From positions 1 through 49,996 of IMG/VR virus record IMGVR_UViG_3300020045_001042: a stretch of 49,996 nucleotides of DNA; one strand, 5' to 3'. Origin of the DNA: a virus (taxonomy: Duplodnaviria > Caudoviricetes). Positions 2,696 through 41,143 of this stretch are shown one piece after another (position 1 is the stretch's first letter; each line of letters opens with the position of its first letter). The notes below the pieces were generated by a model, which was not told the origin of the DNA, searched no databases, and was given only the letters and a program-made list of their open reading frames with translations. The translations under genes were made by a program, and so were the position numbers.

Positions 2696-2868
2696 GTAAA
2701 GATAGAAAACAAGTTACTGTTGTATTTGATATACAAACTGTTGATGAGTTCCATAAAAATAAACAGATTAATGAATACCTTAGCCGTTGCTTTCGTGATT
2801 TTGCTGCTACTTACAACATTATTAATTATGAAATCTTGAATTCAGATAGTGAATTTAAATCTAAATGA
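2692..2868 (+). CDS. Hypothetical protein
   Basis: ATG 2692 (MSKDRK) after GAGG; ATGA overlaps with both neighbours. Confidence 0.55.
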   Translation: MSKDRKQVTVVFDIQTVDEFHKNKQINEYLSRCFRDFAATYNIINYEILNSDSEFKSK

Positions 2869-4007
2869 GGATCTTCGCGCTCGACGTTGAAACAACTATA
2901 AATCATAAGGGTAATGCATTCGATGAAACTAATAATCTTGTTCTGGGCGGCTATGGTAGTGATTCCTATTATGATATATTCATTCCAAATGATGTGGGAA
3001 GAATACAGGAAGTTTTGGATCAAGCAAGGCTTGTGGTTTTATTTAATGCAAAGTTTGATCTTCATTGGATTAGGAGGATTGGTGTTAAGTTTAACATACG
3101 TCTCCCTATATGGGATTGCCAACTAGCTGAGTTCGTTCTATCTAATCAACAATGGAAGTATCCATCCCTAGAGGAAGCTTGTGCTAAACGTGGATTAGGC
3201 CATAAGATTGACGTAATTAAAGAAGAGTATTGGAATAAGGGAATAGATACAAACATGATTCCTTTTGATGTTCTCACTACTTATCTTAGACAAGATATTA
3301 ATCTTACTTATCTTCTATATCTAGCCCAAGTAGAAGAGTTTAAAAAGCTAGAGCATAGAGATAAGTTAAAGCTATTCCGATTACAGTGCTATGATCTTAT
3401 GGTCTTACAGGAAATGGAATATAACGGATACAAATTCAATGTGGAACAAGCAAAGATTGAAGTTACTAAGATGGAAGAAGCCACCACTAGAATCGTGGAT
3501 GCTCTTACTGTTATGTTTCCTGATGTTCCCCTCAATTATTCTTCTAACGATCATATTAGCTGTCTCTTATATGGTGGGGATCTTATACACGAGTACCGTG
3601 TGCCTGTGGGAGTCTATAAAAGTGGAGGTAAGATCGGAGAGACACGATACAAAATAATGGAACAACGTTACACCTTCCCTAGATTAGTAGAACCTCTAAA
3701 GGGAAGTGAGTTAGCTAAAGAAGGTTACTTCTCTACTAATGAGGATGTTCTCAAGAATCTAAACGCAACCGGTAAAGCTAAGAAGTTAATAGATCTTCTA
3801 TTAGAACGAAGAGGAATTGAGAAACTACGAGGAACTTACTATGATGGTATTCCAAACTTAATTAAAGATATGAATTGGAAGGATGAGATTGTGCATGGTC
3901 AATTAAATCAATGTGTTACAAGCACAGGTAGATTAAGTGCTACAAAACCTAATAGCCAGAATATGCCAAGTGATTGTAAACGTCTTTGTATAAGTCGTTA
4001 TGACTAG
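2865..4007 (+). CDS. Family A DNA polymerase, part I (3'-5' exonuclease and thumb)
   Basis: ExoI DVET, ExoII FNAKFD, ExoIII YLRQD; TSTGRLSATKPNSQN motif at the C-terminus. Confidence 0.9.
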   Translation: MRIFALDVETTINHKGNAFDETNNLVLGGYGSDSYYDIFIPNDVGRIQEVLDQARLVVLFNAKFDLHWIRRIGVKFNIRLPIWDCQLAEFVLSNQQWKYPSLEEACAKRGLGHKIDVIKEEYWNKGIDTNMIPFDVLTTYLRQDINLTYLLYLAQVEEFKKLEHRDKLKLFRLQCYDLMVLQEMEYNGYKFNVEQAKIEVTKMEEATTRIVDALTVMFPDVPLNYSSNDHISCLLYGGDLIHEYRVPVGVYKSGGKIGETRYKIMEQRYTFPRLVEPLKGSELAKEGYFSTNEDVLKNLNATGKAKKLIDLLLERRGIEKLRGTYYDGIPNLIKDMNWKDEIVHGQLNQCVTSTGRLSATKPNSQNMPSDCKRLCISRYD

Positions 4008-4022
4008 AAAGAGAGGTAAGAC

Positions 4023-4760
4023 TTGATCGTTAATTTAGACGCCAAGTCGCTTTAGCTGGAATGGATTTCATACCTATATCTATCCCAAGATAAGAATGGT
4101 ATTCAAGAATGGCTAGAGTTCGTAGATAACCAGAAACTAAATGACATACATACAAAAAATCAAAAGGATCTTAACCTTATATCAAGGCTTATCAGTAAGA
4201 TCTTTCTTTTCAGATGCATTTATCGTGGCCCTGCTTTTGCCTATGCTCGTGATCCTGATTTCTCTAGTGTATCTACTAGTGTAAAATACTGGCAGAAAGT
4301 AATAGATAATTTCTTTGAGAAATACTATGGACTAAATCAAAAACACCTTGAACTTATACGAGAAGCTACTACTACTGGACAAACAGTTAGTCCTTTTGGT
4401 AGAGTACATGAACATAAGCAACGACAGACGAAACAAGGTTTAGATTGGAATGTCTCGGACATTACTAATCATATCAATCAAGGATGTGGTGCTGATGTAA
4501 TGGCTGTTGCTCGTGTGATCTTTGCTAGTCGTTGGATGGATAGTGGATTAGAAGGTAAGTTAATCTCTACTGTACATGACAGCATCGTAACAGACGTACC
4601 AGAGAAGAATGTAAAGGCTTGTGCTGAGATTATGTTTGATACCTTTAGAGATCTACCTAAGAGTATTAGTAAAGCATATGGAGTAGATTGGAATCTTCCC
4701 CTAATTTGCGAGGTAGCTTATGGGCCAAACATGAAAGAACAAACAGTAATAACTCTATGA
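4023..4760 (+). CDS. Family A DNA polymerase, part II (palm/fingers), interrupted by in-frame TAG at 4053-4055
   Basis: RBS GAGAGGT 4011-4017 and TTG 4023; reads MIVNLDAKSL*LEWISYL (motif A), RLISKIFLFRCIY (motif B), NQGCGADV, TVHDS (motif C); frame is open from 4056 to 4760. Confidence 0.85.
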
Positions 4761-5206
4761 TAACCTGTACTAAATGTAAACAAGAAAAAAATGAATCTGA
4801 ATTCTACAATAGAAAGGATACTAAGACCAAGAAAACAGAGAAATGTAAATTATGTGTTAATCTAACACATGCGGAATGGGAAAAACGAAATCCACATTAC
4901 CAACGAGATTATTGTAATGCTCGCAGACTTAAAAATAAATTAAGTATTATAGAAAAATTAGGGGGTAAATGTGTTCATTGTGGTTTGGTGGATAATCATG
5001 TTGTTTATGATCTACATCATCTTGATCCATCAATAAAAGAATACTCTTTAGGATTAATTCTAGATCATTCTCAAAATAAAATACAATCTGAATTAGATAA
5101 GTGTATTCTACTATGTTCAAATTGCCATAGAAAAGAGCATGATAGATTAAGAAAAGAAGTTGGTTACGGCCCTAATCAAAAAGATCTAACTGAAATAAAG
5201 ATGTAA
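4757..5206 (+). CDS. Free-standing HNH endonuclease with Zn ribbons
   Basis: CxxC pairs, DLHHLDP...LCSNCHRKEH; ATG 4757 overlaps the polymerase stop (ATGA). Confidence 0.85.
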   Translation: MITCTKCKQEKNESEFYNRKDTKTKKTEKCKLCVNLTHAEWEKRNPHYQRDYCNARRLKNKLSIIEKLGGKCVHCGLVDNHVVYDLHHLDPSIKEYSLGLILDHSQNKIQSELDKCILLCSNCHRKEHDRLRKEVGYGPNQKDLTEIKM

Positions 5207-9897: not shown

Positions 9898-12314
9898 ATG
9901 CAAATAAATAGATTTAAAAATGACTTCTCCGAACGAATCTTCAAGCTCAAATACGCGCAAGGAGTTAACGATACATGGGACGCGCTCTCCGAGAGGCTGG
10001 TGTCTGATGTCTGTGGAACACGGGGTGGGCGAGACAAAGCTCTTATGTCTGAACAAGATAGAGAGCAGCTTACAGACTATATTAAACGCATGTTGTTTAT
10101 CCCCGGAGGCCGTTATCTCTACTATGCTGGCAGACCCAACTCTTACTATAACAATTGCTTTCTCCTACGAGGGGAAGAAGATACCCGAGAAGAATGGGCA
10201 GAATTAATTAAACGAGCAGCAAGTTGTTTACTTACAGGAGGTGGAATTGGAATTGATTATTCGCGCTTCAGGCCAGCAGGTAAACCTTTATCCCGTACAG
10301 GGGGAATCAGCTCAGGTCCTATACCGCTTATGCAAGCAATTAATGGAATCGGAGCGGGAATTATGCAGGGAGGTTCAAGGCGTTCTGCAATTTACGCCTC
10401 GCTCAACTGGCTCCACGAAGACATACCCGACTTTCTAAAGATTAAGAACTGGTCACAACAGATCAAGGATCTTAAAGCAAACGATTTTAATTTCCCGGCT
10501 ACTCTGGACATGACTAACATCAGTATCAACTACGATGATAAGTGGTTGTACAATGCTGATAGAGCTAATCTTAATACGTTCGTTGAGAACTGTCGTCAAG
10601 CAATGATGACTGGTGAGCCAGGATTTAGTTTTAACTTTGGAGATAAACAAAACGAGACTCTTCGCAACGCGTGTGACTGAAGTAACAAGCGAAGATGATT
10701 CAGATGTGTAAATCAGTGCACCTTCAGAGAGGAATCTCTGTAGCAAATTTCCTAATATCGGTGGAAGCATGTTATGATGTAACACCGAGCCAGCCTATTA
10801 AGGGGGCGTAACGACTATGAAGACTAATATGATGCAGTTATCTAAGTTTTTAACTTGGAGTGTTTCTGGTGATGGATATATTGGATATTCTACTAATAAT
10901 AAGAATGCTCATTATTCTATTTCTAGAAGTGCAGAACATAAAGATTACTTAGATGTAATCGCCAATAAATTTATTGGTTTACAAGAATGTAGTGTAAGGA
11001 TTGATGAATACGTACGAAAGGATAATAACAAACTTGTATTGGATCTAAGAACAAATAGTCATCCAATATTTAGTAGAGTACGTGAACGTCAGTATATTCA
11101 AAATCATAAAGTAATAGATCCACATCAACTTACAATGTTAGATTGGGAGGCAGCAGCTTTCTTATTTATGGATGATGGATCTACTTGTTATAATAATAAA
11201 GGATCTATGATTGTTAGACTTTCTACTTGTCATTTCTCTTATGGAGATAATGAATTACTTAGAAAAGCATTCATAGAAAAATTAGGAATGATTTGGAATA
11301 TAAATCGTAATGGAAATGTTTGGCAATTAAATCTAGCTAAACAATCTAAAGATGAGTGGTTTGATAAAATTACTCCCTACATAGTAGATTCTTATAAATA
11401 TAAACTGCCTGAGTCTTTGCAAAAGGAAACATCCAGAACGGATGGTGATCTTGTCTATATTGGAAGCTCCCCCGATAGGTAATTTAGGGAGTGTAAATCT
11501 AGGAAACATAAATTCCATAGAAGAATTAAAACATGTAGTTGAATTAGCAAGTAAGTTCCTTGTTTGTGGAACACTGCGTGCTGATTTACCTTATGATAAA
11601 GTATATAAAGTTCGAGAAAAGAATCGACGCCTTGGTTTAGGTTTAATGGGCATCCATGAGTGGCTCCTCAAACGTGGATACGGATATGAAGTAACACCTG
11701 AATTGCATAAATGGTTGGAGGTATATGAAACAATTTCTAAAGAAGCTGCTGACGAACATTGTGATAGGTTATTTATCAATCGGCCTATTGCTTACCGTGC
11801 CATTGCTCCTACAGGTTCTATCGGGATTCTGGCAGGGACTACTACTGGTATTGAGCCGCTGTTTGCTGTGGCCTATAAGCGTCGTTACCTCACAGACGGG
11901 ACAAGGTGGAAGTATGAATATGTTGTCGACAGTACAGCAGATCTTCTCATAAAAGAGTATGGATTAGATCCAGATAAAATTGAGACAGCTTATAAACTAA
12001 GTCACGACTATGAAAAACGAATTAAGTTCCAATCTGAGATCCAGCAATATGTCGATATGTCAATTTCAAGCACGATTAACTTACCTGCTTGGGGATCAAA
12101 AGAAAATAATGAATCAAAAGTCAACGAGTTTGCTAACATACTCTCCAAATATGCTCCGACTTTACGCGGCTTTACTTGCTACCCAGACGGAAGTAGAGGA
12201 GGTCAACCCCTCACTGAAGTAAGTTATAAAGAAGCAGTTCAACATAAAGGAACTGTGTATGAAGAGAACGATGTTTGTATCATTACAGGTAAGGGAGGAT
12301 CTTGCGGAGTATGA
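9898..12314 (+). CDS. nrdJ: Class II-type ribonucleotide reductase; predicted exons 9898-10674, 10676-10709, 11479-12314 (548 aa)
   Basis: PGGR, NNC, GGGIG, RRSA, GEPG, NAC/TE...VC/NLGSVNL, RRLGLG, IAPTGS, GIEP and C-terminal CxxxxxxxxC; no beta-subunit gene in the genome. Confidence 0.85.
10710..11478 (+). mobile_element. Group I intron in the RNR gene
   Basis: Removal joins GTG T|GT AAT (V-C-N-L-G-S); 5' exon ends in U and intron ends in G; P1 GUGU/GCAC, P2 CAGAGA-GGAA-UCUCUG, P3 UUUCCU/AGGAAA, P4 UCGGUG/CACCGA, P7 GACUA/UUGUC, P8 CAUCC-AGAAC-GGAUG. Confidence 0.9.
10817..11482 (+). CDS. Intron-encoded two-motif LAGLIDADG homing endonuclease
   Basis: FLTWSVSGDG and AAFLFMDDG motifs; lies inside the RNR intron. 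Confidence 0.85.
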   Translation: MKTNMMQLSKFLTWSVSGDGYIGYSTNNKNAHYSISRSAEHKDYLDVIANKFIGLQECSVRIDEYVRKDNNKLVLDLRTNSHPIFSRVRERQYIQNHKVIDPHQLTMLDWEAAAFLFMDDGSTCYNNKGSMIVRLSTCHFSYGDNELLRKAFIEKLGMIWNINRNGNVWQLNLAKQSKDEWFDKITPYIVDSYKYKLPESLQKETSRTDGDLVYIGSSPDR

Positions 12315-34417: not shown

Positions 34418-36542
34418 TTAAGCCACTCTCTTCTTTTTCTCGTTCATAATCATCATCGTCCATCTCTTCCTTGGTGGGGGCTTCAATAATCTTATCAATC
34501 ATTAGACCCAAATAAGCCATACTATCAACCTGATCGTCATGCTTATCTCTAGGGAACCTCATTAGCTCATCTTCTAATGCTTGATACCATTCAGCAGTCT
34601 TATCAAACTTAACTGCACCAGCCCTCATCCGGGCTTGTATAGATTTGGCTCTTGTTTTCTTATCTGCTTTATGGGGCTTGAGTGGAATGATATTAAGGAA
34701 AGTATTCCGTTCTATCATTGTTCGATTAAGGAAAGGCCCAATGGCCTTACTTACTTGCATATCCTCAATACCAAAAGCAATCGGATCATATAGATTCTGT
34801 AGAGCTAGTAGAGTATCTACAATCTCCATACCATCCATACGATCTCGGATAACGTTTATGATATGAAGAACACCATCCTCATCCATACCACCTACGATCA
34901 TTACTGTGTAATCTGCACGCTCTGATTCAGAGATAGCAAAGTCACCTGAGATGTAGTAATTTAGTTTCTTCTTCTTATCGTCTTCCCGGCGAGAGGCGAA
35001 GTCATTCTTCTTAAAGAAGGTATTAGCTTCATCTATCGGAACATTCAGATACTCCTGAGAGTAGACATCAGCTAGGCCACGATCTATATAATCCTGACGG
35101 ATTAATCGGAATTCATTAGCTGTTCTACGTTCAGGCCATAGAATCTGAGAGAAGTCTTGGTTATGTGCTCTGTACTTAACTGTCTTCCACTGTGAAGCAG
35201 ATCTAGTTGAGTACATCTTTAACTCTTCTTGTACAGTATATTTGTCTGTATCTCTAGGCATTAGATTCTCTAAGAAGGAATCCATATGTAGCACAGTACC
35301 TACTATTCGTATAATACCATTCTGAGATCTACAGGGGATCAGGGCACCATACACCCATCTCTTAAACTTCTCACGACGATCTTTATTCATAACGACTTCA
35401 TCATTCTCTAAGTCATCACAAACAATCAGATCAGGTCGAGATCCATTCCACAACATACCACGTAGTTTTTGTTCACTACCTTTAGCAACTATTCGGAACT
35501 TAGTTCCATCAGCAAAAGAAACAATGATGTCGGTCGCTGAATCCTTTTCAAAGGAAACCTCACCCTTCTCATTCTTCTTTAAATTGAATAGTTCTATAAT
35601 GTCTTGATTCTCTTGCAACTCTTGTGTTATCTGCCCAAGGAACATCGCCGCTTGGGATTCCGTATCGCTTACCAGCAATACAAATCTTCGATTACGAAAT
35701 AGAACATTTGCTAGTACATAACTAAGGGAAATGGCCGTAGATTTTGCGTGCTTAACTGTAATCCCAGATTCCTCTGGGTGCCGGACTATACCTTCTTCAA
35801 TCTAAGGAGTTAATTTCTTGTATCTTATCTTTTAATAATCCACGTAAGAGGATTACATCATCTGATGTTCTCTTAGTAGTTCCCATAGTTTCTTGGAATT
35901 CTATGCCTAAAAGAGCAACTTCCTTTTTATGAATGAGATAAGGTACTAACTGCACCAAAGCATCTTTAGCTTGATTACAACTTAAAGTCCAAACCCACTG
36001 TTCTTTTCTATTATAACCTTCTCTATTGGGGCCACTATTCTTTACCCTTATAGTACCACCAAACAAGGATTGTAATTCTTGTAATGGGGGTTGCTGTGCT
36101 TGACAAGCTCCTACCCTAAGATATAAACTTGTATATACAGTTTCTTTTACTTTCTGTGTTCTACGTTGGACAGTAATAAAACCATCGCCATCAATAAAAC
36201 CAGCGGCCCACGCAAGCCGATGCGATTTAGACATAGTGTCTTCTCCTTAATAATTACTTTGATGATCCCCGTCTAGTCTCTACACCTTCCACGGTATGTG
36301 GCTTGGCTCGGTATTGTCCGTTCTGGAGTTCACCGAATTTGAGGATTGTTTAACGCGAGGCCATGCTGTTAACCACGCGGTGCTGATATAGCAACAAATC
36401 TACTTTTAGAAGTACACAGTTCCCACATTTCATCATGGAACTGGGGTATTTGTGACGCATCATCAAACCTGTTTATCAGACATGTTCCAACGAATCCGTG
36501 GATCACATCCTTAGTAAGTTGTACTACATCATTTACAGCCAT
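34383..36542 (-). CDS. Terminase large subunit; exons 36542-36372 and 35750-34383 (512 aa)
   Basis: Spliced Walker A SAPRG|HAKST, Walker B VCDDLE, coupling motif GTVLH, nuclease SGDFA and HDDQVD. Confidence 0.9.
35751..36371 (-). mobile_element. Group I intron in terminase Walker A
   Basis: GGU|UAA...UAAG|CAC boundaries; P1 CGCGUGGU/GCCUCGCG, P4 UUCGGUG/UACCGAG, P7 GACUA/UAGUC, P9 CCCAGA-GGAA-UCUGGG. Confidence 0.92.
35797..36234 (-). CDS. Intron-encoded single-motif LAGLIDADG homing endonuclease
   Basis: LAWAAGFIDGDG; RBS AAGGAG; lies inside the terminase intron. Confidence 0.9.
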   Translation of the reverse strand: MSKSHRLAWAAGFIDGDGFITVQRRTQKVKETVYTSLYLRVGACQAQQPPLQELQSLFGGTIRVKNSGPNREGYNRKEQWVWTLSCNQAKDALVQLVPYLIHKKEVALLGIEFQETMGTTKRTSDDVILLRGLLKDKIQEINSLD

Positions 36543-40953: not shown

Positions 40954-41054
40954 GGGCGGGTTGCTAATGTTGGCCTAAGGGCGAGACTTATAAACTCGTA
41001 AGCACTGTCTAGATAAGGCAGTTAACGTGGGTTCGATTCCCACCCCGCCTACCA
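40954..41054 (+). tRNA. tRNA with UAU anticodon (Ile codon AUA) and a long variable arm
   Basis: Acceptor GGGCGGG/CCCGCCT-A-CCA, T arm GTGGG-TTCGATT-CCCAC, anticodon loop CT-TAT-AA, variable stem ACTGTCT/AGGCAGT. Confidence 0.8.
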
Positions 41055-41057
41055 ATT

Positions 41058-41143
41058 AGGATAGTAGCTCAGCGAAAGAGCAACTGTTCATAGCCGGCCT
41101 TGAGAACAGCATGTCGTAGGTTAAATTCCTACCTATCCTACCA
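41058..41143 (+). tRNA. tRNA-like RNA with an aberrant anticodon arm
   Basis: Acceptor AGGATAG/CTATCCT-A-CCA, D arm GCTC/GAGC, T arm GTAGG/CCTAC; anticodon stem CTGTTC/GAACAG closes a 14-nt loop. Confidence 0.7.

Follow-up and report, generated by a model that had tools for sequence, protein, structure and literature searches.

An extra G in the active-site loop of a phage ribonucleotide reductase and a neighbouring group I intron predicted to excise it

The reductase gene and its intron

The DNA analysed in this study (referred to as the window) is a complete virus record of 49,996 nt with terminal repeats, which encodes a T7-like replication set, ThyX and a NrdJ-like ribonucleotide reductase (RNR). 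No DNA match to any cultured phage was found. The nearest cultured RNRs are those of the Roseobacter phages CRP-212 and CRP-3 (65%), and a distant relative of the intron-encoded endonuclease described below is present in four Pseudomonas phage records.

The RNR gene and all other features of this locus lie on the plus strand. The gene is predicted to consist of three exons: exon 1 (9898-10674), of class II (NrdJ-like), which matches Pfam Ribonuc_red_lgC and ends with N-A-C; exon 2 (10676-10709; 34 nt), encoding T-E-V-T-S-E-D-D-S-D-V plus the first base of the second catalytic Cys codon; and exon 3 (11479-12314). When the exons were scanned one by one, NrdJ_Z was the top NCBIfam match for both RNR exons, far under its equivalog cutoff. 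The signature of class II enzymes, i.e. the N-x-C-x-E finger loop and the second Cys, is present, and the nearest solved relatives are B12-dependent. An alignment that used an intact relative places NACTE opposite NPCGE in Thermotoga NrdJ, with the second Cys opposite C333; the loop Glu and this Cys presumably have catalytic roles in the window RNR as well. The finger loop is described as carrying the essential thiyl radical of RNR (PMC9531940).

Analysis of the reading frame revealed that this loop is broken. The codons AAC GCG TGT (10666-10674) are followed by an additional G (G10675), which results in a premature TGA at 10678-10680, 34 nt upstream of a group I intron. The first-pass annotation had already reported the interruption of N-A-C-T-E, the TGA and the 34-nt spacing, and every coordinate was checked and found to be correct. 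Removal of both G10675 and the intron yields one open frame in which the two catalytic cysteines are kept, while the stop persists if the intron is removed without G10675. Eight candidate 3' ends of the intron were tested: with G10675 removed, 11478 and 11481 alone gave a stop-free frame, and it is 11478, not 11481, that retains the second catalytic Cys. G10675 is a predicted 1-nt intron, which would act as its own terminal G.

The large intron (10710-11478; 769 nt) is inserted in the second catalytic Cys codon (T/GT) and its terminal G is at 11478. The 5' strand of P3 (10748-10753) pairs with 11424-11429 (6/6 pairs in all 12 complete introns, with compensatory pair types at five of the six positions), and is followed by the P4/P5 domain (10757-10789; conserved P4, strands 10757-10763 and 10783-10789) and by the 5' strand of P7 (10811-10817), which carries the G-binding G-C pair and has its partner at 11451-11456 (five of six pairs, the single pyrimidine mismatch being conserved). 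Between P7 5' and P3 3' lies an ORF for a LAGLIDADG_2 homing endonuclease (10817-11482; 221 aa), and the region 11430-11478 comprises P8, the 3' strand of P7, P9 (recognized by eye from the sequence) and the terminal G. P1 (GTGT/GCAC) is invariant across all 15 intron carriers; in each of the 12 complete copies, all of which end in G, it forms 4/4 pairs that include a U.G at the 5' splice site. The exon junction left after removal of the intron restores V-C-N-L-G, and the core motif is common to introns in rRNA genes. By its anatomy the element is a group I intron, for which splicing is predicted. The Rfam group I model gave no match to it at the gathering score or at E up to 10, which is likely due to the 660-nt ORF within the intron core.

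Trees of the introns were poorly resolved: a single clade of the copies that accompany an insertion (see below) was rejected by the 5' part (AU p = 0.016) and was not rejected by the full-intron tree (p = 0.19).

The guide, the insertion and their distribution among relatives

The intron begins with the guide UCAGU-GCAC (TCAGTGCAC; 10713-10721), in which GCAC could form P1 at two sites. One is the intron's own 5' splice site (GTGT, 10706-10709; 4/4 pairs) and the other the GUGU at 10671-10674, where U10674 is the predicted partner of guide G10718 at the cut site. UCAGU faces ACUGA (10676-10680), a P10-like target that includes the premature TGA. With G10675 looped out, the guide and the upstream site form 4/4 P1 pairs, with U.G at the cut, and five contiguous pairs beyond it (-9.3 kcal/mol), as compared with -4.0 kcal/mol and only two contiguous pairs to the 3' exon at the intron's own spliced junction. 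Pairing across the looped-out base, the double use of GCAC and the poor fit of UCAGU to the intron's own 3' exon had all been proposed from the sequence, and were borne out. A P10 with the own 3' exon is likewise short (0-2 contiguous pairs) in 10/12 complete introns, and reaches five pairs in L004 and L138. It is not obligatory in every group I intron.

The geometry of GUGU, G and four or five further pairs occurs once in the genome (both strands scanned). Genome-wide duplex energy does not pick out the upstream site, as several other 17-mers bind the guide more tightly, and the fold of the region is not exceptional (z = -1.3). The distal helix, i.e. that between guide and upstream site, is part of the minimum-energy fold; it outweighs the local P1 in four of the five insertion carriers, where the probability of the distal U.G pair is 0.66-0.87, while the guide of the fifth (L131) is weak (0.02). 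Since the helix by itself is unexceptional, the argument for editing stands on covariation across relatives.

At least 15 distinct intron carriers, including the window, were found among the matches listed after duplicate contigs had been collapsed; L107 proved to be a false parse and was dropped. Five of the 15 have an insertion after TGT, which is G in the window, L001, L131 and L193, and TG in L007. An AGU-GCAC guide was present in 5/5 insertion carriers and in 0/10 of the listed carriers without an insertion. In each of the five, the guide forms 4/4 P1 pairs and 4-6 contiguous P10-like pairs with the upstream site (the sixth pair, in L001, comes from a longer guide), as opposed to 0-1 contiguous pairs in nine of the ten others. 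The tenth, L004, has four contiguous pairs at the upstream site and five with its own 3' exon. The association of guide and insertion is significant (Fisher p = 3.3e-4, or 2e-3 with L004 counted as guide-like) if independence is assumed; as site and guide are 35 nt apart and may be inherited together, the five cases are not necessarily independent. Among the carriers, the distal helix showed no compensatory double change. All insertions known from DNA, among them the 2-nt TG of L007, come after a U and have G as their last base, and the U.G wobble 5' of the piece predicted to be excised is present in 5/5 insertion carriers. It is worth mentioning that the sequence of L007 stops within the endonuclease gene, and that this copy may be dead or misassembled.

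In L006, which has no insertion, the distal P1 forms (0.67). At its junction (near 2346-2400) the exact edited target GCGTGT ACTGA is present, and its guide is one change off the matching type, which breaks the first P10-like pair. This copy may represent a precursor state or, alternatively, a reversion by loss of the G.

Wherever DNA could be read, the extra G thus lies beside an intron with an AGU-GCAC guide and intron copies without an insertion lack this guide, in agreement with the co-occurrence predicted in the first-pass annotation. A scan of viral contigs for a single extra base gave one match (L001), and no 1-nt insertion without the intron. None of 80 further RNR relatives has an insertion: 77 have uninterrupted junctions (61 distinct), one does not cover the site, and in two the NAC Cys codon is interrupted (T/GT) by a different group I intron with a related endonuclease (approximately L048:964-1766 and L086:2637-3460). 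The genome scan likewise gave no RNR with an insertion among the 120 matches listed.

Gene callers truncate the RNR at the break, and therefore the ending of a predicted protein reveals the inserted base. With a profile stopping at NAC, 26 of the best 120 of 636 matches (protein clusters) ended with NACD followed by a stop (NACD-stop). The combined set of 269 clusters, i.e. three top-120 lists plus one representative (NACD-stop was present in two of the three queries), contained 28 NACD-stop endings, 36 breaks at DSDV, 59 breaks in the NAC codon, 137 proteins intact through the second Cys and nine others. Readings expected for an inserted A, C or T (NACN, NACH or NACY before the stop) were found in 0 of the 269 clusters listed, and one protein ends with NACRLK, which fits the reading of a 2-nt insert ending in G. 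The median identity of the NACD-stop proteins (27 clusters and one cluster member compared) is 70%. One of these clusters is the window itself and another is probably L131; the remaining ones are known from their protein endings alone, without DNA context. Asp follows NAC in 0/143 intact loops. Many RNRs in clusters of approximately 390-410 aa break again just past R-A-I-A-P-T-G, with varied tails, pointing to further intron sites.

In a FastTree phylogeny of 227 rows, the 28 rows with the NACD-stop state require 24 changes, against a mean of 25.4 after shuffling, and supported branches force at least 11 of them. The scatter resembles that of the other introns, and +G, other-intron and intact forms occur side by side in clusters at 90% identity. 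The state behaves, in this tree, as a mobile cassette would.

The exons of the carriers bear marks of selection. GCG TGT and ACT GAA are fixed in 5/5 insertion carriers, whereas in the 61 distinct intronless junctions GCG occurs in none, ACT in 11 and GCG-TGT in none; GCG TGT is found in 2/10 intron carriers without an insertion. Neighbouring synonymous sites vary among the insertion carriers, unlike the paired third positions of GCG, TGT and ACT. Between these carriers, exon 2 differs at 3-10 of its 34 nt (in each pair, 2-5 codons changed synonymously and 0-1 nonsynonymously), and the exons share 66-82% amino acid identity (pS 0.68-0.85, i.e. saturated; pN 0.13-0.25). No further stops were detected in exons 1 and 3 in the available carrier DNA (that of L007 and L193 being without exon 3). 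Intact exons and synonymous divergence suggest that the frame past the stop is still translated, barring a recent arrival of the cassette in each lineage. The carrier endonucleases are 67-87% identical to that of the window, values which argue against one recent sweep.

Contigs of four public sequencing runs (X1, X4, X15 and X18) were aligned to the region; none of the sequencing runs contained half of the words of this region. One contig of X4 and one of X18, an RNA library, span the site and the guide without gaps, and the latter retains both the G and the intron. The single gap in one X1 contig is explained by an extra base in the guide loop, and hence the G appears to be kept there. Two X1 contigs without the G do not reach the guide, which is what intronless relatives would give in a DNA run; a contig of X15 has a non-matching guide and its alignment ends at 10679. 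In total, contigs from three further studies have the extra G and retain the intron. Neither edited or spliced RNR RNA nor a spliced intron junction was seen among the contigs of the four runs, which does not demonstrate its absence. Depth was below 5 in two of the three contigs supporting the G, as might be expected of a sequencing or assembly error. Such an error would have had to place an identical base at the same position in four distinct contigs, the contigs of three other studies and 28 protein clusters, and the inserted base is never A, C or T; we regard it as a negligible prospect. The recurrence of the same G in independent assemblies, together with the state of the exons, indicates that G10675 is an authentic and inherited insertion and that the gene which carries it is under selection.

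Predicted excision of G10675 and competing explanations

We propose, with a probability of roughly 0.75, that the intron excises G10675 as a 1-nt intron by the chemistry of excision-splicing. One guide would serve two sites. At the upstream GUGU, P1 would be formed by GCAC, placing U.G at the cut, and UCAGU would pair with ACUGA in a P10-like helix that leaves G10675 looped out; attack by guanosine would cut after U10674, G10675 would enter the G-binding site as a terminal G, and the freed U would attack the next phosphate, joining TGT to ACT. In cis, the precursor would use free G and release GpG before the intron self-splices. In trans, the released intron would use the G at its 3' end, as happens in the engineered form of excision-splicing. 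We favour the cis route by a narrow preference, as the distal helix is part of the minimum-energy fold and outweighs the local P1 in most insertion carriers. However, an upstream cut in the precursor risks a skip from that cut to the 3' end of the intron, joining exon 1 to exon 3 in an out-of-frame, dead product, and the trans route avoids such skipping.

The G, the guide and the intron would spread together by homing as a single cassette, and the likely benefit would be that endonucleases directed at the N-A-C-T-E loop find their DNA target disrupted by the extra G. Six of 23 scan matches are RNRs in which an intein ends immediately before the NAC Cys, and in 39 of 76 distant representatives that could be parsed the loop gives way to other, mostly intein-like, sequence. 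Since introns and inteins occupy this loop in relatives, shielding from competing homing elements is plausible. The earlier suggestion that the G makes the gene dependent on the intron holds only in part: splicing is needed, and for that very reason the G adds little to the dependence. It is possible that the G originated as the terminal-G remnant of a lost intron, although this candidate origin is unsupported among the 80 RNR relatives, none of which has a full intron at the TGT/ACT position. Taken as a whole, we consider it likely that a mobile phage intron carries a guide that deletes a satellite intron of 1-2 nt, the shortest possible, from the RNR catalytic loop, i.e. that it is a natural ribozyme-guided deletion editor, maintained as an editor-plus-lesion cassette across dozens of phage lineages in a turf war of homing elements.

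An improbable but serious competitor is correction by the ribosome, which would stall at GAC-UGA and slip +1 to give N-A-C-D-E-V, the guide helix being a by-product or a tuner of splicing. The stop lies directly after GAC in all 28 protein cases, and the invariant ACT also creates a stop suited to frameshifting. Furthermore, short inserts in polymerase motif A, in the window and in 3/25 parsed relatives, are independent of the RNR intron, so that this phage family seems tolerant of recoding at catalytic motifs, and the bypassed protective insert of T4 gene 60 provides a precedent (PMC5009743). Yet the product would carry the Asp that intact loops lack, the shift from GAC to ACU leaves tRNA-Asp almost no re-pairing, no matched landing codon or homopolymer is visible in the sequence, and the 2-nt cases would require another shift. 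The fixed GCG-TGT, the covariation of the guide and the restriction of the insert to G are also left unexplained.

Two further readings dispense with repair altogether. The +G allele might be dead or nearly dead and spread by homing with the intron, the RNR of the host or of a co-infecting phage compensating for it. The scatter of NACD-stop over the RNR tree and the mixed clusters at 90% identity are what a mobile allele of this kind would give, but a second lesion is absent from the exons of all five carriers, the cassette is old judging by its divergent endonucleases, exon 2 diverges synonymously past the stop, and the covariation of the guide again finds no explanation; this makes the reading quite unlikely. 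Still more doubtful, to the point of being very hard to sustain, is a split enzyme without repair, composed of an N-terminal piece ending with NACD and a piece restarting at ATG 11442, inside the 3' end of the intron. An in-frame ORF of 290 aa does start there, and split RNRs occur in phages (Aeh1 nrdA). However, the Glu of exon 2 and the second catalytic Cys would be in neither piece, 5/12 complete introns have a short upstream open frame or none at all, and exon 2 is under selection at the protein level. Excision of the G by the intron would account for the covariation that these readings leave aside, and the arrangement of G, intron and guide is, on comparative evidence, real, conserved and very unusual, with a predicted mechanism that is well supported by comparison.

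Comparable systems and further observations in the window

Excision of a single G via P1 and P10, with ligation of the flanks, has been described in vitro for three engineered group I ribozymes, from Pneumocystis, Tetrahymena and Candida (PMC2532722), and engineered excision-splicing is also described as working in E. coli, where the efficiency of such ribozymes in cells is limited (PMC6155759). The window shares with this trans excision-splicing (TES) the P1 with U.G at the cut, the P10 on the 3' flank and one looped-out G, its activity being predicted. The TES ribozymes were built in the laboratory, without exons and with a P10 guide added, whereas the arrangement in the window is natural, in cis and 34 nt from an intron that also needs to self-splice. 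In the literature searched, which included few subscription papers and no supplements, so that a prior description is possible, we found neither natural excision-splicing nor a 1-nt group I intron.

Group I introns with homing endonucleases are known from phage RNR genes (T4 nrdB, T4 nrdD and Twort nrdE). Phage introns in RNR genes have also been surveyed in Bastillevirinae (PMC11878797). The window intron resembles these in its core, its endonuclease ORF and its insertion in a conserved catalytic motif; their guides match their own two splice sites, whereas the 5' part of the window guide fits a second site. Guide-RNA deletion editing of kinetoplastid mitochondria, in which protein enzymes remove U, also employs a guide that spans the looped-out base, whose removal restores the frame, but in the window an RNA catalyst with a built-in guide would remove G. 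T4 gene 60 contains a bypassed insert of 50 nt associated with a homing endonuclease, for which protection against cleavage was proposed (PMC5009743, citing Bonocora 2011). In both cases an insert that breaks the frame and an endonuclease gene move together as a mobile cassette, and the insert may confer protection from cleavage and is (in the window, by prediction) corrected in expression; unlike gene 60, where the ribosome bypasses the insert between matched codons, the window has an insert of 1-2 nt, no matched codons and a ribozyme guide.

If G10675 is indeed excised, a reaction known from engineered ribozymes exists naturally and is kept by selection in the codons of an active site. This would represent a one-nucleotide intron and protein-free guided deletion editing, and would make naturally optimised excision ribozymes available. 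For annotation, it would mean that apparent frameshift pseudogenes beside group I introns may be functional.

Several other features of the window were observed. A second group I intron (approximately 35750-36372, minus strand), with an endonuclease ORF at 35797-36234, splits the Walker A motif of the terminase (APRG/HAKST), and its guide, examined by eye, fits its own splice sites. Two tRNA-like genes (40954-41140, plus strand) have extra loop sequence of 32 and 17 nt outside the Rfam alignment.

The DNA polymerase (2865-4760, plus strand) is encoded in two ORFs: the first ends at a stop at 4005-4007, followed by a Shine-Dalgarno-like AGAGAGG and a TTG at 4023, and polymerase relatives likewise restart just 5' of motif A. 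At its 3' end there is an ORF for an HNH endonuclease (4688-5206, plus strand) and then an apparent duplicate of the polymerase C-terminus. Motif A (4047-4064, plus strand) reads D-A-K-S-L-stop-L-E-W (CTT TAG CTG). Of 38 polymerase relatives fetched, 25 could be parsed and three of these have inserts in motif A: L380 (76% identical) has the same Leu-stop-Leu insert with TAA as the stop, in L394 the insert is 2 nt long and lies at CTT TAG, and in L361 it is 8 nt long and lies just downstream. The RNR junctions of all three are intronless, and no guide matching the polymerase inserts was found in the introns of the window. The Leu-stop-Leu cases look like natural stop-hopping, a process for which, according to PMC5009743, no natural occurrence was known as of 2016.
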